Notes under the pieces: model-generated
Told to the model about the DNA's origin: nothing
The model's database searches: none
Seen by the model: only the letters and a program-made list of their open reading frames with translations
Part shown: piece by piece, positions 1-11,202 of the stretch
Position numbering within the stretch: position 1 is the stretch's first letter
How the letters are laid out: every line of letters starts with the position of its first letter
Program-made: the position numbers and the translations under genes
Virus record (IMG/VR): IMGVR_UViG_2698536573_000001
Coordinates: 1 to 11,202 of that record
DNA: 11,202 nucleotides
Source: a virus
Taxonomy: Monodnaviria; Loebvirae; Hofneiviricota; Faserviricetes; Tubulavirales; Inoviridae
Direction: 5' to 3' (one strand)

Positions 1-384
1 TTACCTAATTTCCTGAGTTTCGAGGTAATCTTTCAACACCGTAAAAGTGAAAGCAGATTTGCTTATGCAATGATCAGTTGCCAAAGACCACGCATGGAGT
101 ACCCCAGGAACCTGAGCTGGACACTTGGCAGATGCATAATGGAAGCAAATATATTTGATTAATTGGTTGCTGATTTTATCCTGACGAAAGTGGGCATAGC
201 AGCGGCTTCCTGAATAATCGAATACCCAACTGTCACTTGTTGAGCTGATATATTTGTCATCAAAATGATCTGCCGATTTAAGATAAATACTAACTGGTAT
301 ATTAACCTTTAAAATACTCTCAACAAATACAGGTGTGTAAATGTTGCTGTTCGACGCATTTAACTGTTTATTGATTCGACTCAT
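1..384 (-). CDS. hypothetical Cys/His-rich protein, co-oriented with and overlapping the 3' end of the recombinase gene
   Basis: ORF track frame 1..408. I place the start at the ATG at 382..384 (MSRINKQ...) because GGAG lies 6 nt upstream on the minus strand; the ATG at 406..408 has no Shine-Dalgarno. It overlaps the recombinase stop (368..370) by 17 nt, suggesting an operon. Several Cys/His residues in the C-terminal half; no family recognised. Confidence 0.4.
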   Translation of the reverse strand: MSRINKQLNASNSNIYTPVFVESILKVNIPVSIYLKSADHFDDKYISSTSDSWVFDYSGSRCYAHFRQDKISNQLIKYICFHYASAKCPAQVPGVLHAWSLATDHCISKSAFTFTVLKDYLETQEIR

Positions 385-1834
385 ATGCACTCCATTCATC
401 GCATACATGGGAAAAGGTTGATTTCAGGGCTTCGTTATCAATCACAATTCGCTGAAGATTGGCCGTATTAGCCTGCTGAGATAGAAATCTTTTAGCGTAA
501 AGATCAGGCATATGGCTATTGTGACTCCAACCGCCAAGTAGCCGTAATTCATCCTTGGCTTCATCCATCAATCCAACGATAGAAAAGTCTATGGCTGCCA
601 AGTGTGAGTTGGCCTTAATTTTTTGAAGTTTATCACGATAAATACGTTGAAGTGTTAAATAAGCCCAAGTATGCCGCGTTATATGAGGCGAGATGCTTTC
701 AATGGCATCATAATATTCATCTTTTTTATATTCAGGATACTGCACACTCATAATGTCATCAATACGGGTAAAGATATCATAGACTGCATGGTATGACAGT
801 GGCGGATGTAGTCTTTGGGTGGAAGTGAACAGAAAACTATGGGAGGCTTGAGGGCGGATTTTATGGATATATATATTTAGAAAATGAAAGTCCAGTTTAT
901 CTAATGCCAGCACCCGGTTTGCATAAACATTTTTTAATGAAGGCAATCTTTTTCGTTGATCCGAAACGTCGTCATCTACTGTGGTCACAATCAGGCTGAA
1001 CTGATCCCCTCGGAGATTTGGTTTGATCGAATGACACTCCAAAAGCAGTAATTCACTGACACGCAATCCGTAATTTAAAAGCAATCTGCAAATCAGAAAA
1101 TTACGTAGCTGGATTTCACCAGCGGGGAAGGGATTGAGTGGGTTTTTCTTTGAAATTGAACCGGGTGTAATGATTTGGTAAAAAGCCATGACCATCTCAG
1201 CAGTCAGACTTCGAAAGCGTTTATGGGTCGTGCCATTGTTCATCTGACGAGAATGGGTAAGAGTACGGAATTCTGCCTTATGTATCGATAAACGTCCCGT
1301 TAACTGCGTGGCAAGTCGTGTAAGCTCTTTAGGCGTGCCATCTATATATCTCGGCGAGATATACGTGTTAATCAAATATCTGATAAAACGAATAACCGAA
1401 TGTACATGCCTGATATTTGTACAACGTTGAGGCGTGGTCTGCGTAGTAGACCTTATGGTTAACGCTGGTACATATAAATGCGTATTTTCCAGATAATGAA
1501 AAAAGGCTGTAAGTTCATCAATGGCAATCAATGGATTGTGGTTCGAGGAATAGAAACTGAAGCAAAAAGTCACACCATGTTTCTGGTGCCAGAATTCATA
1601 GAAAAACTTGAGCGCTTGAAGTGAAGCGGATTGCGTGGCTGATGAACGCAAAGCAAGATGGTCGATAAGATATATTAACGGATATAAAAGCGGCTGGCGC
1701 GTGTGAGTATCCATCAGTGCCCATAAACGCTGCCGTTGGTTGATATTGAGTTGTGTAAGTATGAACACGCGGCACTTAACCTTATCAATGGTGTGGATAT
1801 GAACAAAGTAACCGACAAACATAACGTCCTGCAA
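368..1834 (-). CDS. tyrosine-type site-specific recombinase (phage-integrase family) with a long unassigned N-terminal extension
   Basis: 488-aa ORF. The C-terminal half carries the ordered tyrosine-recombinase signature: Arg in GLRVSELLLL, His-x-x-Arg in HITRHTWAY, then LGGWSH and the catalytic Tyr in MPDLYAKR. The first ~250 aa are unassigned. Track start is TTG at 1832..1834; the first ATG is 1820..1822; neither has a clear Shine-Dalgarno, so the start is uncertain. Confidence 0.75.
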   Translation of the reverse strand: MQDVMFVGYFVHIHTIDKVKCRVFILTQLNINQRQRLWALMDTHTRQPLLYPLIYLIDHLALRSSATQSASLQALKFFYEFWHQKHGVTFCFSFYSSNHNPLIAIDELTAFFHYLENTHLYVPALTIRSTTQTTPQRCTNIRHVHSVIRFIRYLINTYISPRYIDGTPKELTRLATQLTGRLSIHKAEFRTLTHSRQMNNGTTHKRFRSLTAEMVMAFYQIITPGSISKKNPLNPFPAGEIQLRNFLICRLLLNYGLRVSELLLLECHSIKPNLRGDQFSLIVTTVDDDVSDQRKRLPSLKNVYANRVLALDKLDFHFLNIYIHKIRPQASHSFLFTSTQRLHPPLSYHAVYDIFTRIDDIMSVQYPEYKKDEYYDAIESISPHITRHTWAYLTLQRIYRDKLQKIKANSHLAAIDFSIVGLMDEAKDELRLLGGWSHNSHMPDLYAKRFLSQQANTANLQRIVIDNEALKSTFSHVCDEWSAYESNQ

Positions 1835-1913
1835 GAAGAAGATAGAGGGGTAGGTAAGTGTATGATTAATCGTATCCTGTGGCCGGTTATGAACTAAATG
1901 ACCGACGGACTAA

Positions 1914-1941
1914 ATTTAACATAATATACATTATGCGCACC
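1914..1941 (-). other. dif: dif-type XerC/XerD recombination site: XerC arm 1931..1941, central region 1925..1930, XerD arm 1914..1924
   Basis: Plus strand reads ATTTAACATAATATACATTATGCGCACC. Its reverse complement is GGTGCGCATAATGTATATTATGTTAAAT, which matches the E. coli-type dif sequence as I recall it at 28 of 28 positions (GGTGCGCATAA / TGTATA / TTATGTTAAAT). Confidence 0.85.
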
Positions 1942-2081
1942 AATGGTAAGGATGGCAGAATCTGGCGGGAATCGTTGACACTGGCCGTCAACTGGCTACT
2001 ATCGACAGTGATTCAAAATCATCCGTTTCTCCAAACGAATCAGAATCAAATGTCTGTCAGCAGTAAGTGAACGGCCTGACC

Positions 2082-2330
2082 TCACCAATCAGGCCTGTTC
2101 ATCCAGTTAGTTGGTAAATCTGTACCTGATACACGAGAATCAAACACCACTTCTTCAGTGCCATCACCATGATGCCGGATAATCTGGTAACCGGATTGCG
2201 GGTTCTGGCTCTCAGCTTCATAAGCAGCCCGGAATGCTGGATCTTTGAGAAGCATCACTTTCAGCTCCTGATGTGTCATGAATTTTTCCATGATAAGCCC
2301 CGATGAATGCTGCCGCGCCGAATCAGCCAT
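2082..2330 (-). CDS. hypothetical small protein (cargo position between secretin and dif)
   Basis: 82-codon ORF co-oriented with the phage operon. No convincing Shine-Dalgarno at the first ATG (2328..2330); internal ATGs at 2289..2291 and 2277..2279 are alternative starts, so the real product may be ~65-69 aa. The segment ELKVMLLKDPAFRAAYEAE resembles N-termini of some antitoxin-like regulators, but no HTH follows. Coding status uncertain. Confidence 0.35.
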   Translation of the reverse strand: MADSARQHSSGLIMEKFMTHQELKVMLLKDPAFRAAYEAESQNPQSGYQIIRHHGDGTEEVVFDSRVSGTDLPTNWMNRPDW

Positions 2331-2452
2331 AACGCTGAAAATGGAAACTGTACGGCTTGGCCAACCCCGGACAGCAACAAAACAAGTTTTGTCACTGACC
2401 GGCGTTATCTTTCAAAACAGACAGTTAACGATTTTTTGTCTGGTGTTTATGC

Positions 2453-2479
2453 GTGAAATTTCGTGCGTACGAAATTCAC
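2453..2479. repeat. 27-bp imperfect palindrome at the 3' end of the basic-protein ORF
   Basis: Arms GTGAAATTTCG (2453..2463) and CGAAATTCAC (2470..2479) pair with one bulged base around the centre TGCGTA. No U-tract follows on either strand, so it is unlikely to be an intrinsic terminator; more likely a protein-binding or recombination-related site. Confidence 0.5.
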
Positions 2480-2724
2480 CACCAATAAACAAACGGACGA
2501 TGACTGACCGGAAAAGCAATGCCGTCAGCATCATGACCACGCATTACCTGATTGAGAAGCCTTCTGACTTCACGGCGCTCAGGCCTGGTCATCATCATAT
2601 TGCGATACCAGGACGGCGATTTATCAAACCATCTGGCACAACTGGCAAAATGTGAACCTACACGACGATAAGACTTAAGGCGGCCACCGGGAAGTCGGTC
2701 ACGCGCCTTATTTTTTACAGACAT
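2476..2724 (-). CDS. hypothetical small basic (Arg-rich) protein, possible DNA-binding accessory protein
   Basis: 82-aa ORF. ATG at 2722..2724 with GAGGA 7-8 nt upstream on the minus strand. Same orientation as the phage operon, 88 nt downstream of the secretin stop. Arg/Lys- and Trp-rich; no family recognised. Confidence 0.5.
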   Translation of the reverse strand: MSVKNKARDRLPGGRLKSYRRVGSHFASCARWFDKSPSWYRNMMMTRPERREVRRLLNQVMRGHDADGIAFPVSHRPFVYWW

Positions 2725-2812
2725 AATAAATCCTCTAAGTAACTGAATACCTAGAAGATGTCGTACTGTTCATACCCCATAAAAGTTAACGCCATAATAA
2801 AAATCCATACAA

Positions 2813-4057
2813 TCAGTTCAGGTTGTCCCGGAACAGTTCACCGCTCCTCGCGGCGCTGCGGGGCGTCGCCCTGCTCCGGTCAACCTTTCTGACCTGAAGC
2901 ATCACCATAATATCAGTCTTGTTGCTTTCACTGGTACGGGAACCGAAGAAGCTCCAGCCGGAACTGGCCTTACTGTCTTTCTGTTCAGCAAGGCCACCAA
3001 GTAAAATAATATCACCATCTGCAAGGCTGACTTCGGTTGTTACATCACGCTTGATAAGGGTTGGCGAGTTATTGACGCCGGTTTCAGTGGTCACAAAGTT
3101 GGAAAGCTGCTGCTGAATCTTGAGATCCATTGTCCGACTTTTGATTGATGGCGTTACGTTAAACAAAACACCGCTGGAACGATATTCAACGGATTGCGTG
3201 GTCGTATTGTTATTCACCGTAACACTGCCCAGTACTGGCACATCAGAGCCGACTGAAAAAGACGCTGAGGCATTATTTTTTACCCGTAGTCGTGGCGCAC
3301 TGACAACAGTAAAACGACTGTCGGTTTTAAGCAGATTGAAAATGGCATCAATGGAGCCGGTTCGAATATTGATAAAATTATCCAGTCCGGCAGCACCAAC
3401 TGAAATATTGAATTTATCAGACAGAATTTTAGCCGCTAAAAGAATGCCGGAGCCGTCAGACTGCGAGGTCTGAACCTCAAAAACATAACCAGAAACAACC
3501 ACTTCATCACTCATCGTATCCAGCGAAGTGACCAGTGTTTTCAGGATGGCGATATCCTCTTTCGTACCATAATAAACCAGAATATCACCGGTTCGATTAA
3601 TGTAGTTGCTTGCCCCTGATGAACCTTTTAGCGAATCGTCAGAAATCACGGCTCCACTGTTATTGAAGGAGCCTGAAACGTAGCCGCCAAGAATATCAGA
3701 CAGGTAGGCAACAGAACGGTACTGAGGCGTATAAGTCCATGTATAACGTGGCTTAACCGGCTCTTTCGGCGTATAGGGCGCGATAAAATCAACACCCTTT
3801 TTCGTCCATATTCGAATGTTCATATTGCCAAGATAACGGGTTACAAATTCCCGTTCATCAATATCAGGTGTTAACCTGAATGTAATCATTCGTTCATCAT
3901 TAACAAGCTGTGGATCTAGCATATACGGGACTTTAAGCACCTCACTATAAATAAGAGAAATAGCCTCCGGTAGCTTGACTTTATTTAATTCAAGCTCTGA
4001 CCCTGCGAAAGCACATGAAGAAAATAGTAGCGTTAATGCGAGTAAAATCTTTTTCAT
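2813..4057 (-). CDS. secretin, filamentous-phage pIV-like outer-membrane export channel
   Basis: 414 aa. N-terminal signal peptide MKKILLALTLLFSSCAFA. C-terminal secretin-domain hallmarks (SAPRLRVKNN..., PTLIKRDVTTEVSLADGDIILLGGL). ATG at 4055..4057 overlaps the Zot-like stop TAA (4057..4059) by 1 nt, indicating translational coupling. Confidence 0.9.
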   Translation of the reverse strand: MKKILLALTLLFSSCAFAGSELELNKVKLPEAISLIYSEVLKVPYMLDPQLVNDERMITFRLTPDIDEREFVTRYLGNMNIRIWTKKGVDFIAPYTPKEPVKPRYTWTYTPQYRSVAYLSDILGGYVSGSFNNSGAVISDDSLKGSSGASNYINRTGDILVYYGTKEDIAILKTLVTSLDTMSDEVVVSGYVFEVQTSQSDGSGILLAAKILSDKFNISVGAAGLDNFINIRTGSIDAIFNLLKTDSRFTVVSAPRLRVKNNASASFSVGSDVPVLGSVTVNNNTTTQSVEYRSSGVLFNVTPSIKSRTMDLKIQQQLSNFVTTETGVNNSPTLIKRDVTTEVSLADGDIILLGGLAEQKDSKASSGWSFFGSRTSESNKTDIMVMLQVRKVDRSRATPRSAARSGELFRDNLN

Positions 4058-5082
4058 TATTTTTTCCCCGTATAAAGCGTCACACGCTCACCATCAATAA
4101 TTCCGCTCATCAACATCCCTTTGTAATTAAAACTGGATGCAGGAACGGCACGCAAAACACCGGCACCGTTAACAAGAATCACAAACGCCCTGCCTTCACT
4201 GGTCATTCTCCCTGATATACGCCACTCGGTTGAAAGTGGCGGTTCAGCTGGTTCTGAGGGAGTATCTGGTGCTGGAGTAGCAGCGGAAGAACGAAACATG
4301 GCCGCATCACGTACATCTGTTGTAGCCAAATCTGGCGAGGGATCGCTTCGGCCAAACGTGCTGAAAAATGAGTAAATCAGCCAGCCTGACCCGATAAACA
4401 TCAATGGAAAAAGCACAAGAAAGAACCTGACTTTGCCAGAATTCCAGATGCTCTGGCGTTTATCTGTCTGCTTTTCATTACCGTTATTTCCTTCATAGCT
4501 TTTATAAAGTTCAAAAATATCAGGGTTATATTTATTGCGATAACTGGTGACGAGGTTGCTTTTATAGATTTTGTGGCCTGAATATACGTCAATGCAGTAA
4601 TGATTATTCAGGCCCAACGCTTTCAGCTTGCGCATCCGGTAAGTTGTTTCTATTTTGTCTTTCAGAAAGCGAGCAATATTAGAAAGTGACTGATTTACAA
4701 TAACCAAATCACAGCTAATACCCGTTTCAGGGTGCGTAAAATGACGATGTTCAGCAATAAATGATTTCTTCTCAGCCGTCATATCCTTATCGCTACCGAA
4801 GATTCGCCATGCTTCATCAATAACAATTAAATCACCAAACTGGCAAAAGCTCCCTTCCCCACCTTTAAAAGGAAAGAAATCTGCTTTAAGCACATCATCA
4901 TTATCCACAACAATAATTTCTCCCGTTGCATCAGGATAACGTTCGGTGATTTTATCTTTTTGTAAACCATAAATGTTCGTCACAACTCTCCGGCCGCTGG
5001 TAAATGCAGGAATAATGACATTGCAAACGGCTTCATAACTTTTTCCTGAGCCGGGTATGCCAATATATGCAGAAATAGCCAT
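4057..5082 (-). CDS. Zot-like assembly ATPase (filamentous-phage pI family)
   Basis: 341 aa. Walker A GIPGSGKS at residues 8-15, Walker B-like LIVIDEAW, and a single transmembrane segment (FFLVLFPLMFIGSGWLIYSFF) before a Pro/Ser-rich C-terminal region, as in pI/Zot. ATG at 5080..5082 lies 3 nt after the upstream gene's stop. Confidence 0.9.
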   Translation of the reverse strand: MAISAYIGIPGSGKSYEAVCNVIIPAFTSGRRVVTNIYGLQKDKITERYPDATGEIIVVDNDDVLKADFFPFKGGEGSFCQFGDLIVIDEAWRIFGSDKDMTAEKKSFIAEHRHFTHPETGISCDLVIVNQSLSNIARFLKDKIETTYRMRKLKALGLNNHYCIDVYSGHKIYKSNLVTSYRNKYNPDIFELYKSYEGNNGNEKQTDKRQSIWNSGKVRFFLVLFPLMFIGSGWLIYSFFSTFGRSDPSPDLATTDVRDAAMFRSSAATPAPDTPSEPAEPPLSTEWRISGRMTSEGRAFVILVNGAGVLRAVPASSFNYKGMLMSGIIDGERVTLYTGKK

Positions 5083-5085
5083 AAC

Positions 5086-5373
5086 TCACCCTATAACAGG
5101 AATACGTCGAATAATAAAACGAGTAGCCATTGCGGAGATAATCATACTAATCCCCTGTGGTAATTTACTCAGGTTAATGAAGTACCAGAATCCGTCTGAT
5201 AAATTGGCAAACAGCGATGAGAGATTGCTTGAATCTGGCAGTAACTCAACAAGGATTTCAACGAAGCCCTGGACTACAAAATACAGCGCAAAGAATACGA
5301 CGAATTTAATAATCAATGACCGGAATACAAAACCTAACAAAGTATTTAATGCACTAATCAGAATCCCAAACAT
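5086..5373 (-). CDS. minor coat protein, pVI-like
   Basis: 95-aa hydrophobic protein with multiple TM segments, located between the pIII-like and pI genes as in Ff phages. Strong RBS AAAGGAG 7 nt upstream of ATG 5371..5373. Assignment rests on position and composition. Confidence 0.6.
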   Translation of the reverse strand: MFGILISALNTLLGFVFRSLIIKFVVFFALYFVVQGFVEILVELLPDSSNLSSLFANLSDGFWYFINLSKLPQGISMIISAMATRFIIRRIPVIG

Positions 5374-5385
5374 AGTTGCACTCCT

Positions 5386-7098
5386 TTAGGCACTCAGAAT
5401 AATACGGAGCGCAACAAATCCCCATATAATCAGAAAAATGGTTTCTACGGCGCTTCTGTTCTGCTCAATTAACGGACAATGGGAGTCAATTCTGTACTGG
5501 TGATTAAACACGCTGAATTCAACAACGGGGCAGGATGCTGAACGAGAGCCGATGTTAAATTCGTTTGTAAAAGGCAACAAGTTAATAATTGGCGTTAAAA
5601 TATCTCTTGCCGTTGGCGTTTCTTCAAGCTCAGGCTCTTTTACACCGGGATCTTCTCCCAAATCTATATTGCCATTATTTCCAGTGTCAGACCCTGAGTT
5701 GTTATTAATGGTAATATCAATATTGACGTCAGCCCCTGCACTGTCAGATACAGGTGAAAGCATATCTAATAACGTTGGAGATAGCCTAAGTTCCGACATC
5801 GCAGAAGTTACTTCAGCCGGTGAAACCTCTTTAAACGGTAAGCCGTTATAATCGGCATTAACGGCAGCTTCAGACCACAGCTCGTTAATCATGTCGGCAA
5901 GAAGTGCTGGCGATACACTAACACTATCAAGATACTCCAGATAATCAATCATGGACTCAATATTTCCGGCCTCCAGTACTTCCGTCATGGCTTTATATTT
6001 GGTATTGGTCCAGATAGTAAGCTCACTCTTTTCATCAATATCTTTTGCGGTGTAATCCTCTTTTTCAGGAACGGCGCAAATCGTCGAATATCCACCATTT
6101 GACTGATTAGTCGTTTTACAAGGCGTGTTGTGATACTGATATTGCTTGCCTGCTGTTAAATAAGCAACGCTGTAATACATGGGAAGCCCTGCTACATTTT
6201 CATACATGGGAATACCTGCGGGAAATGAAGATGCGGCCGGGTTGCTATACAAGTGTGTAATCTCAGGTATTTCATAAAATGAGGAAGGATAAGTAAACTT
6301 ATAATTCTGTTCAGTAAAGGATACATCTCCATTACTGTTGACAACTTTATTCGTCACAGTGCGTTCAAAATTCGTTAGTGTTTCAGTATAAGTACGCGAG
6401 TTATAGTCATTAAGATAATTTCTGGCAATTTCAGTTGGATTATCACCATAGTAATAAATTAGCTCTTTCGAATCCTGATAATAATAAAGCGCATTATCTG
6501 GCGTGGAATATCCTGTTTCAACACCTACAACTGGAGAACCCGCATCCACATTATTACGACTAACATGAAGGATTACCGGACTTAATTCCTGTGGTTCAAA
6601 ATTAACGGTTATCGTCTTACTTTCACCACTTTGACCACTGTACGTTACTTCATATAAATTATCGGAAATCTTTTTACCGTTAGTCATTACCATTACCGAG
6701 CCGTCAGATGAACTCAAAGAAGACGGAACAAAAGATGATACAGCAGCAGCAATACCCGCCCACGTTGCAACACCGCTCATTTTGTATGATGAGGCAGCAG
6801 GCAAGTATTCGGCAGCATTAGCCGCAGCGCGGCCAACAAAAACACGGGTTGCTGTAAGCTGTGATACCGTATAAATCGCATCATTGGCAGCAAAGCGACG
6901 AACAAGCACCCGGCCAACGACTTTAGGAATAACAGCCCGCGCAGCCACTGCTGCAATTGCTGGTACAAATGAATATGAATATCGGGGAAAGGAAACCCAG
7001 AGAAAGGAAAAAATAAAGGAATAAACCGTCAGCCTCTTAGCCCAAGAATAACGACATAAGCTGAGACGATCCCCCATAAAAGGGAACCCAATTTCCAT
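5386..7098 (-). CDS. adsorption / minor coat protein, pIII-like
   Basis: 570 aa. Gly/Asn-rich linker (NNNSGSDTGNNGNIDLGEDPG), C-terminal membrane anchor (TIFLIIWGFVALRIILSA), position directly after the major coat gene. GGAG 8 nt upstream of ATG 7096..7098. An internal Met at 6778..6780 begins a signal-peptide-like stretch (MSGVATWAGIAAAVSSFVPSS), so the true N-terminus is uncertain. Confidence 0.65.
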   Translation of the reverse strand: MEIGFPFMGDRLSLCRYSWAKRLTVYSFIFSFLWVSFPRYSYSFVPAIAAVAARAVIPKVVGRVLVRRFAANDAIYTVSQLTATRVFVGRAAANAAEYLPAASSYKMSGVATWAGIAAAVSSFVPSSLSSSDGSVMVMTNGKKISDNLYEVTYSGQSGESKTITVNFEPQELSPVILHVSRNNVDAGSPVVGVETGYSTPDNALYYYQDSKELIYYYGDNPTEIARNYLNDYNSRTYTETLTNFERTVTNKVVNSNGDVSFTEQNYKFTYPSSFYEIPEITHLYSNPAASSFPAGIPMYENVAGLPMYYSVAYLTAGKQYQYHNTPCKTTNQSNGGYSTICAVPEKEDYTAKDIDEKSELTIWTNTKYKAMTEVLEAGNIESMIDYLEYLDSVSVSPALLADMINELWSEAAVNADYNGLPFKEVSPAEVTSAMSELRLSPTLLDMLSPVSDSAGADVNIDITINNNSGSDTGNNGNIDLGEDPGVKEPELEETPTARDILTPIINLLPFTNEFNIGSRSASCPVVEFSVFNHQYRIDSHCPLIEQNRSAVETIFLIIWGFVALRIILSA

Positions 7099-9237: not shown

Positions 9238-9684
9238 ATGGGCAACAATGAGCATGAAGTTATGGCGGACAAACAGAGAGCAGAACGTATCAAAAAGGTA
9301 ATTCTGGAACACTCGACTTATGAAGAACTGGCCGAGAAGACTGGCATTAGCGTGAGTACGCTGGTCAGGATAGCGTCCGGCAAAACTGAACCTAAATTCA
9401 GTGACATCATTCAGATAGCTAAAATTACTGGTGCAGACTTAAACACCTTAGCTTATGGCTATGCTCTTGATGTTAAAGAAGAAGCTACCGAGCGGAAGCT
9501 AATCACTTCTGCGGATGGATATACTGATGAAGAAACCACTAACGCACATAATTTCATCGTGTGGAACATCAGGACACTGGAAAAACAAGATATTCTGGCA
9601 CTCGCAAGGCAGGTTTCTGCCTTAAGTTCATACACTTACAGTACTAAAATGTTTATGAAAAAAGCGGTGTCTGGAGAAGAGTAA
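9238..9684 (+). CDS. HTH transcriptional regulator (XRE / Cro-C1 type), phage repressor-like
   Basis: 148 aa. Predicted helix-turn-helix in the N-terminal third (STYEELAEKTGISVSTLVRIASGKTEP). GGAG 8 nt upstream of ATG 9238. Divergent from the replication gene, as for filamentous-phage repressors. No Ser-Lys peptidase (LexA-like) motif in the C-terminal part. Confidence 0.8.
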   Translation: MGNNEHEVMADKQRAERIKKVILEHSTYEELAEKTGISVSTLVRIASGKTEPKFSDIIQIAKITGADLNTLAYGYALDVKEEATERKLITSADGYTDEETTNAHNFIVWNIRTLEKQDILALARQVSALSSYTYSTKMFMKKAVSGEE

Positions 9685-9783: not shown

Positions 9784-10206
9784 ATGAGTAGAAATAACGA
9801 AACAAGCGGCGTTGAACTGGTTGTCGTGGGCGTATTTGCTTTCTGTCTGGCAGTTGTTGCCTGGCTAATGAAAACTTTCGATGTTGAATGGCAAACAGCA
9901 CTGGAAACTGCGCCTGGCCTGATAGTCTGGTTGCTTGTTGTCGGTGCGGGGATCTTTTTCGGGATCAAAATGGAAACTGGTCTTGTTCGCTGGGGTGCTC
10001 CACTTGCGATCGCCCTTCTGATTCCGGTATTCAAACCAATTCTTAAGGAAGCAGCCGGAGTTCGTGAAATGGGCGGGTTAGTTTTCGATGATATGGTTTC
10101 GTGGTACGGAACTGGCTGGGGAATGTCGCTGATGTTCTTCGGGATTCTTATCGTCGGATACGGCCTACTTTATTGGTGGCACAGAAGAAAGTCATATTAC
10201 TGGTAA
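9784..10206 (+). CDS. small integral membrane protein (about four TM helices), function unknown
   Basis: 140 aa with four hydrophobic segments (about residues 11-29, 45-62, 70-85, 112-131) and a Trp/Tyr/Arg-rich C-terminus. ATG 9784 preceded by AAGGA. Co-oriented with the repressor. GC content resembles the phage core. Confidence 0.6.
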   Translation: MSRNNETSGVELVVVGVFAFCLAVVAWLMKTFDVEWQTALETAPGLIVWLLVVGAGIFFGIKMETGLVRWGAPLAIALLIPVFKPILKEAAGVREMGGLVFDDMVSWYGTGWGMSLMFFGILIVGYGLLYWWHRRKSYYW

Positions 10207-10317
10207 CTCCGCCGCGGGAAACCACGGTAAAGTTCGGGTGTCACTGAACCCCGAACCGCAAGCGGTTAAATAGCAATCAACTATAGAGAGTAAGTCAAAA
10301 CATATAAGGGTTAAATA

Positions 10318-10785
10318 ATGACAGTATCTCTTGGCGATGTGTTTGGTGGTTTGGCGTTTTTTCTCTCAATCTATGCAACAATTAAAACCGTAAAGTTCAA
10401 TGAAAGACAAAAAGCGTTAATAGAAGCGCAAGAAAGGTTAACGAATCTCCAACTTACTAAAGAAAAAAATGAGTTGGAAAGTTCAAAGAAAGCTGATATT
10501 AGTGCAAGCATGGTCTCTGTAGGAAATAGAGAATATAAACTAAGAGTTATTAATAAAGGGAAGGTTTCTGCGAAAAATGTAAGAATAGAATTTCCCGATA
10601 ATAATTCACCAGTATCAATGAGTGACGTTAAAAGCAAATTTCCGCTTGAGTATCTCGCGACAGATCAACCAGTCGATCTCATTGCGTCAGGAGAGTTAGG
10701 TCGAGCAAGGAAATTTACTGTAAGACTAATGTGGGATGACGATTTCAAGGATGATAATGAAATTGTTTTACATATAACATATTGA
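10318..10785 (+). CDS. hypothetical membrane-anchored protein (N-terminal TM helix, predicted coiled-coil, C-terminal beta-rich domain)
   Basis: 155 aa. N-terminal hydrophobic helix (LGDVFGGLAFFLSIYATI), then a charged helical stretch (ERQKALIEAQERLTNLQLTKEKNELESSKK). AAGGG 7 nt upstream of ATG 10318. AT-rich codon usage, distinct from the phage core. Confidence 0.55.
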   Translation: MTVSLGDVFGGLAFFLSIYATIKTVKFNERQKALIEAQERLTNLQLTKEKNELESSKKADISASMVSVGNREYKLRVINKGKVSAKNVRIEFPDNNSPVSMSDVKSKFPLEYLATDQPVDLIASGELGRARKFTVRLMWDDDFKDDNEIVLHITY

Positions 10786-10830
10786 TTTAAATACACTTTA
10801 TATCGAAGCAAAACAAGTAGAGGAGTAAGG

Positions 10831-11202
10831 ATGAAAAATCAACTTTATAGCCGTCAAGGAATATACGACATAATCAGAAGCCACTATTTAAGAAACTTTC
10901 CATATACGATTGAATTTGAAGCGCTTAATGCAATAAATGAACACATTAGCCTTATAATTGATAGCGCATCAATACAAAAAAATGAAAGTGGTGAGTACGT
11001 ATTTATCAATAATAATCCTAATATGGAAGTTGATGACCCATTTGAAAGCACAGAGAGAAATCTTGCTGCTTATCTATCAAAGTCTAGTGGTGTTGAAGCG
11101 TTATTCCAAGATGTGAACGCATTACAAAAATGGTTGCTCCAATATGGATTTATCCATGGTGGTATAGCGACTGAAAAAATGCTGGTTACGAATAAACTAT
11201 AA
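10831..11202 (+). CDS. hypothetical soluble acidic protein
   Basis: 123-aa ORF ending with TAA at the window edge. Strong RBS GGAG 5 nt upstream of ATG 10831. Same AT-rich composition as the preceding gene and 45 nt downstream of it, so probably co-transcribed. Confidence 0.55.
   Translation: MKNQLYSRQGIYDIIRSHYLRNFPYTIEFEALNAINEHISLIIDSASIQKNESGEYVFINNNPNMEVDDPFESTERNLAAYLSKSSGVEALFQDVNALQKWLLQYGFIHGGIATEKMLVTNKL

Follow-up and report, generated by a model that had tools for sequence, protein, structure and literature searches.

Two open reading frames (ORFs), designated here A and B, occupy the right end of IMG/VR record IMGVR_UViG_2698536573_000001, an 11,202-nucleotide (nt) stretch of DNA referred to below as the window. 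The window is 100% identical to several Escherichia coli chromosomes and represents a dif-integrated inovirus, a filamentous prophage of the CUS-1/YpfPhi type; RefSeq annotation of the matching chromosomes gives a secretin, Zot, a DUF2523 protein, coat proteins, a single-stranded DNA-binding protein, a family II/X replication protein, a helix-turn-helix (HTH) repressor, and a membrane protein of 140 amino acids (aa). A sequence-only reading of the window had described A and B as co-oriented, closely spaced genes for proteins of 155 and 123 aa, each with a ribosome-binding site. These coordinates proved exact (Table 1), with 45 nt separating the two genes on the same strand and the B stop codon forming the last letters of the window. 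Both Shine-Dalgarno sequences were located as well, AAGGG for A (positions 10307-10311, 6 nt 5′ of the ATG) and AGGAG for B (a few nt 5′ of the ATG). The AT-richness noted in that reading is real, but its contrast was overstated, as the guanine-plus-cytosine (GC) content is 34.2% for the A+B module versus 42.5% for the phage core (2082-10206), and not 30% versus 50-55%; single phage genes lie between 40 and 48%.

In E. coli MS8345 (chromosome positions 1591545-1611333), two prophage copies lie in tandem and A and B are present in each. The attP site begins 3 bp past the B stop codon, just outside the window, and consists of inverted dif-like arms, TTGGTTCGCATAATGACGTTATGCTAAA and AACATAACGAGTCGTACATTATGCGCACC, flanking a GC-rich hairpin, an arrangement that resembles the folded attP of CTXphi. 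Since A-B is found in each tandem copy and attP follows directly after B, the two genes are phage-borne and, as horizontally acquired cargo, bear out the earlier suggestion of an accessory module beside a prophage regulatory region. The same observations exclude ordinary host DNA of the terminus region, which had been offered as the alternative. Low GC content and a position near dif/hipBA would fit such an origin, but the genes belong to the repeat unit of the prophage and are followed at once by attP, and most E. coli lack them, a copy of any kind occurring in only 95 of 5,426 genomes. On codon-level comparison both ORFs are true coding genes under long-term constraint, because A and B show ratios of nonsynonymous to synonymous substitution rates (dN/dS) of 0.09 and 0.15, respectively, when the phage genes are compared with plasmid copies of ~80% identity. 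We accordingly regard host DNA or non-coding ORF artefacts as an explanation of negligible probability.

Genome comparison shows that A and B are cargo in a hypervariable accessory slot of this dif-integrated CUS-1/YpfPhi-like prophage. The repressor gene and the 140-aa gene are common to about 96 E. coli genomes, and between the latter and attP we found four cargo types with conserved flanks, the attP region 3′ of the slot being conserved in all of them. The UTI89/NU14 type, that of the canonical CUS-1 hosts, carries a single 369-aa gene with no family match (10 genomes). The IAL7252 type carries a 91-aa zinc-ribbon gene of the ECs_2282 family, referred to here as Zn, together with a 159-aa gene, A′, whose product is 37% identical to A, and is without B (28 genomes). 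The window type, with A and B, occurs in 15 E. coli genomes that differ in serotype and host and also in Salmonella. A related Salmonella inovirus has a full cassette, in which Zn has 88 aa, B has 122 aa and A is 70% identical. This genome end has been reported to differ between CUS-1 and YpfPhi, with no function assigned (PMC4266046). CUS-1 orf1/orf1a and YpfPhi YPO2271/YPO2272 resemble A and B in phage group, in lacking an assigned function and in differing between the two phages (PMC4266046), and we infer that these ORFs beyond the repressor lie at the same genome end as A/B. Identity of A and B with orf1/orf1a was considered and rejected, as the UTI89/NU14 slot holds one 369-aa gene to which A and B are unrelated.

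A slot of this kind has precedent in the accessory hotspots (pHVRs) of dif-integrating Vibrio inoviruses, which are enriched in defence genes (PMC11630473, PMC12715192). Those slots, too, are defined regions near the lysogeny/attP end of small filamentous prophages that depend on XerCD; their content varies among near-identical phages, and they exchange genes with plasmids and chromosomes and are frequently linked to defence (PMC11630473; PMC12715192). The Vibrio examples are CTX-type phages, whereas those described here are of the E. coli/Salmonella CUS-1/YpfPhi type, and the present cargo (zinc ribbon, the A-like family DUF8453, and B) matches no PADLOC v2 defence model. Our observations extend the accessory-hotspot idea from Vibrio CTX-type phages to the CUS-1/YpfPhi group, whose hosts are extraintestinal, avian and enterotoxigenic E. 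coli, Salmonella and Yersinia pestis. Separately, in other E. coli strains a ~40-nt attP-type sequence adjoins a SIR2-family gene, which suggests that other dif-integrating elements have recognised defence-type cargo at the equivalent position.

With respect to the functional unit, the sequence-only reading had paired a membrane protein (A) with a soluble partner (B), which is not supported: the conserved partner of A is the zinc-ribbon gene upstream. Our survey of the A family covered 75 loci with 76 A-family genes, taken from E. coli chromosomes and plasmids, assemblies with close homologues, and 45 species-representative genomes from across the Proteobacteria plus a few metagenome-assembled genomes (MAGs) of Actinomycetota. 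A zinc-ribbon gene of ~90 aa ends between -34 and +5 nt from the A start in 68 of the 76, the stop of one and the start of the other usually overlapping by 1 or 4 nt. Of the eight exceptions, seven belong to the window's own phage lineage and the remaining one is cut by a contig end, such that Zn lies upstream of A in 68/68 informative loci outside that lineage. The co-occurrence of A and B that the earlier reading had proposed to check holds in one direction only. B is always found 3′ of A (31/31 A-family genes having B, with near-duplicates among the loci counted), but the majority of the A family is without B, and elsewhere the gene 3′ of A varies or is encoded on the other strand. Because A is always accompanied by Zn outside the window's lineage while most A genes lack B, evolution suggests Zn+A, rather than A+B, as the functional unit, and for annotation A+B is unsuited to that role. 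Moreover, the overlapping stop and start codons, as read from the DNA, show Zn and A to be translationally coupled. Relative to this ECs_2282 zinc-ribbon plus DUF8453 pair, A of the window has the same length and architecture; what sets the window apart is the missing upstream gene and the presence of B.

The Zn protein (ECs_2282 family) contains CPxCG...CxxCG motifs and a charged helix, and its C-terminal tail, ...AFKGxKNIRIK, is conserved. Its profile matched 717 clusters, and the best 120 matches listed were all stand-alone proteins of 91-112 aa. For Zn, PADLOC v2 returned only weak partial matches, to PDC-S64 (E=4e-7) and HEC-08, and for A′ none, and a weak NCBIfam similarity to an MqsA-type zinc ribbon (E=6e-4) fell below the cut-off. 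A literature search for ECs_2282, DUF8453 or the corresponding WP accessions found nothing, and the pair is named only in NCBI/Pfam annotation.

Intact cassettes also occur on plasmids. Modules consisting of an ISNCY-family transposase gene, Zn, A and B, ~81% identical, are present in 80 E. coli genomes and also in Klebsiella, Raoultella and Enterobacter; counting all types, 73 of 105 matching places in E. coli are on plasmids. In the plasmid copies, part of the phage attP, namely its first dif-like arm and its hairpin, persists after B (in ColV-type plasmids and Raoultella), and a homologue of the phage intergenic element lies 5′ of Zn. Because phage sequences are retained at both ends, the plasmid copies appear to be inovirus-end fragments captured by insertion sequences rather than the source of the phage cargo. 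On a Raoultella chromosome (locus 1-5500), repeated units of an ISNCY-family transposase and a DUF6904 gene adjoin the ISNCY-Zn-A-B unit, and transposases of this family may recurrently travel with small passenger genes.

The absence of Zn from the window is accounted for by global alignment of positions 10200-10340 to the intact cassette of plasmid pCys-1. This alignment contains one gap of ~254 nt, which begins at the ATG of the Zn ORF and reaches about codon 85, and on both sides of it (window ~10213-10301, and 10302 onward) identity to pCys-1 is about 80%. The deletion junction, 10301/10302, is ambiguous within an ‘AT’ microhomology. What is left of Zn carries the A Shine-Dalgarno sequence and overlaps the A ATG by 1 nt. 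As aligned, the comparison shows loss of Zn by a single clean deletion of ~254 bp that spared the leader and the A ribosome-binding site, and A and B to be the two surviving thirds of a Zn-A-B cassette. The Salmonella Zn-less copy has the identical junction, so this is a single deletion event that has since spread between genera. Many strains have kept the Zn-less allele; A is therefore evidently not lethal when the Zn protein is missing, and it follows from this tolerance that the Zn protein is not simply the antitoxin of A. The natural deletion amounts to a free genetic experiment, with matched Zn-A-B, Zn-A′ and A-B alleles.

In terms of protein architecture, the AlphaFold2 model of A (mean pLDDT 74.8) agrees with the layout of N-terminal helix, charged helix and beta-rich C-terminus that had been read from the letters. 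A single continuous helix, residues 5-56, comprises the hydrophobic N-terminus and the charged stalk, and is followed by a beta-sandwich of 7-8 strands. The hydrophobic segment is only moderate, with a Kyte-Doolittle maximum of 1.62 over 17 residues. K23, K26, R30 and K32 come after this segment, and A is for this reason predicted to adopt an N-out/C-in orientation, with its sandwich predicted to face the cytoplasm. Homologues of A are annotated as DUF8453 by NCBI and fall in PHROG phrog_6723. Profile searching retrieved 1,065 representative clusters at E≤1e-3, of which 367 also passed E≤1e-10, with matches down to E=1e-73, and nearly all are 150-160 aa long with the same layout; by these matches A is a clear member of a DUF8453-type family. 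The conserved columns of the family are N79/G81/A85, P109 and W139/D141, of which N79, P109 and W139 are invariant, and the alignment contains no conserved catalytic-type residues. Fold searches with A returned generic immunoglobulin-like (Ig-like) sandwiches and nothing more specific, Pfam and NCBIfam scans gave nothing at threshold, and PADLOC v2 yielded a weak PDC-S57 match alone (E=3e-4, residues 16-51, in the helix region). Searches of the PDB by sequence and profile with A, B and the Zn protein gave sub-threshold arrestin and DARPin matches and generic zinc-ribbon matches only. A role for A as a holin was considered and set aside, as the match to the holin family phrog_1350 reaches only E=0.16 and no endolysin lies nearby; inoviruses do not lyse their host.

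B is, as had been described, a soluble acidic protein, with an isoelectric point of 5.08 and no hydrophobic segment. Its homologues (PHROG phrog_22661) are all enterobacterial and at least 57% identical, its AlphaFold2 model is unusable (pLDDT 46), and no Pfam, NCBIfam or PADLOC v2 match exceeded threshold. In a profile search for B across 73 loci, every match lay 3′ of an enterobacterial A gene, and no remote homologues turned up 3′ of non-enterobacterial A genes. A 405-aa gene 3′ of A in Alcaligenaceae was considered as an analogue of B and rejected for want of similarity, the downstream gene elsewhere varying or lying on the opposite strand. With its restriction to Enterobacteriaceae and its invariable position 3′ of A, B is best described on comparative grounds as a lineage-restricted add-on to Zn+A. 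The view that neither protein belongs to a recognised family has survived these searches, the PHROG matches of both being strong but to families of unknown function. The sensitive profile and structure searches that had been called for do place A in a large family, but produced no characterised homologue for either protein.

The surroundings of Zn+A elsewhere point toward conflict functions. In three different contexts the pair directly follows genes for Type I restriction endonucleases, and at other loci it adjoins a Type III enzyme, a Type IIG enzyme, an Avs2 NLR-like gene and a type IV mREase/PDC-S02-like gene. In an integrase/AlpA island it adjoins an AAA and S8 peptidase pair, which we take to be IetAS-like. 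On ColV-type plasmids it stands beside a nucleotidyltransferase and S-4TM effector (CBASS-like) and a GajB-like helicase, and in several marine Gammaproteobacteria it lies in the variable region of an SXT-like integrative and conjugative element (ICE), just 5′ of genes for TraI_2-family and TraD/TraG-type coupling proteins. After dereplication, the neighbouring proteins belong mostly to restriction-modification, AAA, integrase and conjugation families. This is the classic signature of a defence island, which is shared by addiction modules. The proposal of defence cargo is thus plausible in its broader part, a defence or conflict role supported by the neighbourhoods of relatives, whereas the two-gene logic attached to it is not supported.

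Taken together, these observations lead us to favour, with a probability of roughly 60%, the reading that A-B in the window is a probably disabled remnant of an uncharacterised cassette with a putative conflict or defence function, carried in a slot of known kind. The intact Zn+A pair would be a conflict module, most likely of the anti-phage or abortive-infection type. The cytoplasmic Zn protein would serve as a sensor or regulator that docks on the cytoplasmic beta-sandwich of A, and A, tethered by its single N-terminal helix and possibly oligomerising via its stalk, would be the membrane-acting effector. Without the Zn partner, the system in the window would probably be disabled or altered instead of functioning as a two-gene unit. 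A and B lie on the repressor strand, 3′ of the repressor and 140-aa genes and opposite to the replication and morphogenesis genes, and no consensus promoter was found for them, because of which they are probably transcribed by read-through from the lysogenic (repressor) transcript; this would fit expression in the lysogen. Among single-pass or few-pass membrane effectors of abortive infection, the type III CRISPR effector Cam1, the transmembrane effectors of CBASS/Pycsar, and RexB also combine a short N-terminal membrane helix with a cytoplasmic ligand- or partner-binding domain, as would be expected of a membrane effector triggered by its partner. They have no known sequence or specific fold relationship to A, whose domain is a plain Ig-like sandwich, and the Zn-A-B cassette encodes no signalling enzyme. 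The zinc ribbon and the membrane-anchored Ig-like protein form a compact, widespread and unstudied two-gene module that is a reasonable candidate for a new type of conflict or defence system.

Several points weigh against this interpretation. The sensor and effector roles of Zn and A are conjecture, and the membrane insertion of A is predicted rather than certain, given the marginal hydrophobicity of its helix. None of Zn, A and B is homologous to a characterised protein that would link it to defence, and PADLOC v2 has no model for any of the three, the weak PDC-S57 (A) and PDC-S64 (Zn) matches standing alone. The family is nearly absent from sequenced phages and viral contigs: a scan of IMG/VR found one contig only, from the same phage, and a tblastn search of 50,697 phage records gave no match to A, B or the Zn protein. 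The ORFs of A and B are intact in every copy seen, and the signal of relaxed selection described below consists of five codons and could equally reflect diversifying selection on a still-functional A-B. Finally, guilt by association would suit toxin-antitoxin (TA) or addiction modules as well.

The last point bears on an addiction or toxin-immunity module in which the Zn protein is toxic and its antidote is A, with or without B, such that the window, its toxin deleted, would hold a harmless orphan antidote, perhaps one that protects against Zn-bearing relatives (anti-addiction). Such a module would account for the tolerated loss and subsequent spread of the allele lacking the first gene, and the stop/start overlap would ensure that A is made whenever Zn is made. 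The cassette is moreover found on plasmids, ICEs and prophages, which gain from stabilisation, and the Zn protein has the sub-threshold MqsA-type resemblance given above. No TA family of Pfam or NCBIfam scored above cut-off; the tolerated loss of Zn rules it out as A's only antitoxin, while a toxic Zn would be compatible with it. The 90-aa Zn protein shows no toxin fold or catalytic motif, however, and matches only generic CPxCG ribbons, and a membrane-anchored Ig-like antidote would be unusual. No E. coli genome has both a Zn-less phage copy and a full cassette, although only ~0.2 would be expected. On balance we judge an addiction module to be quite improbable.

Selection within the Zn-less lineage is relevant to whether A-B still works. 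In this lineage A varies only by S4N, S106R and D140N, and B only by E28Q and N51S. All five of these codon changes alter the amino acid and none is synonymous, versus one nonsynonymous and three synonymous changes in the repressor and 140-aa genes over the same comparison (Fisher test p about 0.05, a hand calculation on small numbers). This hints at relaxed or diversifying selection after Zn loss. If diversifying, the all-nonsynonymous pattern could mean that A-B is an autonomous, working exclusion or abortive-infection pair that the loss of Zn has made constitutive or retargeted, for example toward inovirus superinfection exclusion. The constant association of B with A in Enterobacteriaceae, the purifying selection on B, and the intact state of both ORFs in all Zn-less copies from E. 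coli and Salmonella would agree with this. So would the plausible read-through from the lysogenic transcript noted above. Nonetheless, outside this lineage A is never without Zn (68/68), most A genes lack B, and B has neither precedent nor homology. Furthermore, the Zn-less alleles are few substitutions apart, so the deletion looks recent, and the intact ORFs are uninformative for that reason. We consider an autonomous pair unlikely.

A more speculative and still less probable reading is that Zn+DUF8453 is an undescribed, widespread membrane-acting anti-phage system, and that the Zn-less A-B, far from being junk, is an effector-only or immunity-only decoy that would titrate or blunt intact Zn-A(-B) systems on plasmids and rival elements. 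If this were true, the phage would have turned half of a defence system into a counter-defence of its own.

The position of the slot also recalls ctxAB of CTXphi, another cargo of unusual composition between phage core and attP in a dif-integrating inovirus, and A and B might by analogy be lysogenic-conversion or virulence cargo that acts on the animal host or the cell surface. Apart from the shared attP-proximal position, modest effects of CUS-1 and YpfPhi on fitness are reported from infection models (PMC4266046), and the Zn-less allele is present in enterotoxigenic (ETEC), avian pathogenic (APEC) and extraintestinal pathogenic (ExPEC) E. coli strains. However, ctxAB encodes a secreted AB5 toxin, while A and B lack signal peptides and do not resemble ctxAB, and the globular domain of A is predicted to be cytoplasmic. 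Relatives of Zn+A are, in addition, common in environmental, non-pathogenic Proteobacteria and occur in some Actinomycetota MAGs. A virulence function is in our view very unlikely compared with the disabled conflict cassette that we favour.

The features of the prophage that frame the slot are collected with A and B in Table 1. The 140-aa gene at its left flank is kept in all CUS-1-like variants examined. The 48-nt element that follows is probably a cis-acting element of the phage that marks the left border of the slot, and it may function in packaging or as an origin. It contains inverted repeats, its + strand fold is non-significant (z = -1.6), and its match to If1 is the sole similarity of the prophage to any record in the phage collection. 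The plasmid cassettes also carry a ~80% copy of it.

Table 1. Features of the window and of its attP-proximal slot
Feature	Position	Strand	Details
Exact E. coli dif site	1914..1941	-	28/28 match, none expected by chance; other prophage end
HTH_3 repressor gene (RstR-like)	9238..9684	+	Pfam HTH_3 E=1.6e-9; phrog_3557 transcriptional regulator
140-aa multi-pass membrane protein gene	9784..10206	+	phrog_4174; left flank of variable slot
48-nt element	10212..10259		95.8% identical to part of the Escherichia phage If1 major intergenic region (megablast)
Leader preceding the Zn start codon in intact cassettes	10260..10301	+	~80% identical to plasmid leader
Zn ORF remnant	10302..10318	+	Last four codons and stop, ATA AGG GTT AAA TAA; from pCys-1 alignment
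Gene A	10318..10785	+	ORF, 155 aa
Product of gene A			N-terminal hydrophobic (predicted membrane-anchor) helix, ~30-residue charged stalk helix, C-terminal Ig-like/CARDB-like sandwich
Gene B	10831..11202	+	ORF, 123 aa
attP copies in the E. coli MS8345 locus	15504-15600 and 24860-24955 of locus		Beyond the window's right end

Further observations concern individual prophage copies and the left side of the window. Where the Zn-less Salmonella prophage should have its repressor gene (locus 4196-4378), the called gene encodes only 60 aa versus 148 aa in the window, and the repressor of that copy may be truncated. In the tandem prophage of E. coli MS8345, an IS3-family element interrupts one copy near the secretin end and the other has a frameshifted pIII-like gene. 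The left end of the window finds its best full-length match in the ETEC O6:H16 strain M9682-C1. In the window, directly outside the prophage and beyond dif, two ORFs resembling site-specific integrases lie on the - strand of positions 1-1834, one of 488 aa with a weak Phage_integrase match and one of 135 aa, running off the window; the same arrangement is found in about 139 E. coli genomes and may belong to another dif-adjacent element. Beside dif on the prophage side, an 82-aa ORF (2082-2330, - strand) without a Pfam match has another small ORF alongside, and we infer that these small ORFs are homologues of YPO2280a/YPO2281, for whose homologues the YpfPhi review assigns no function.

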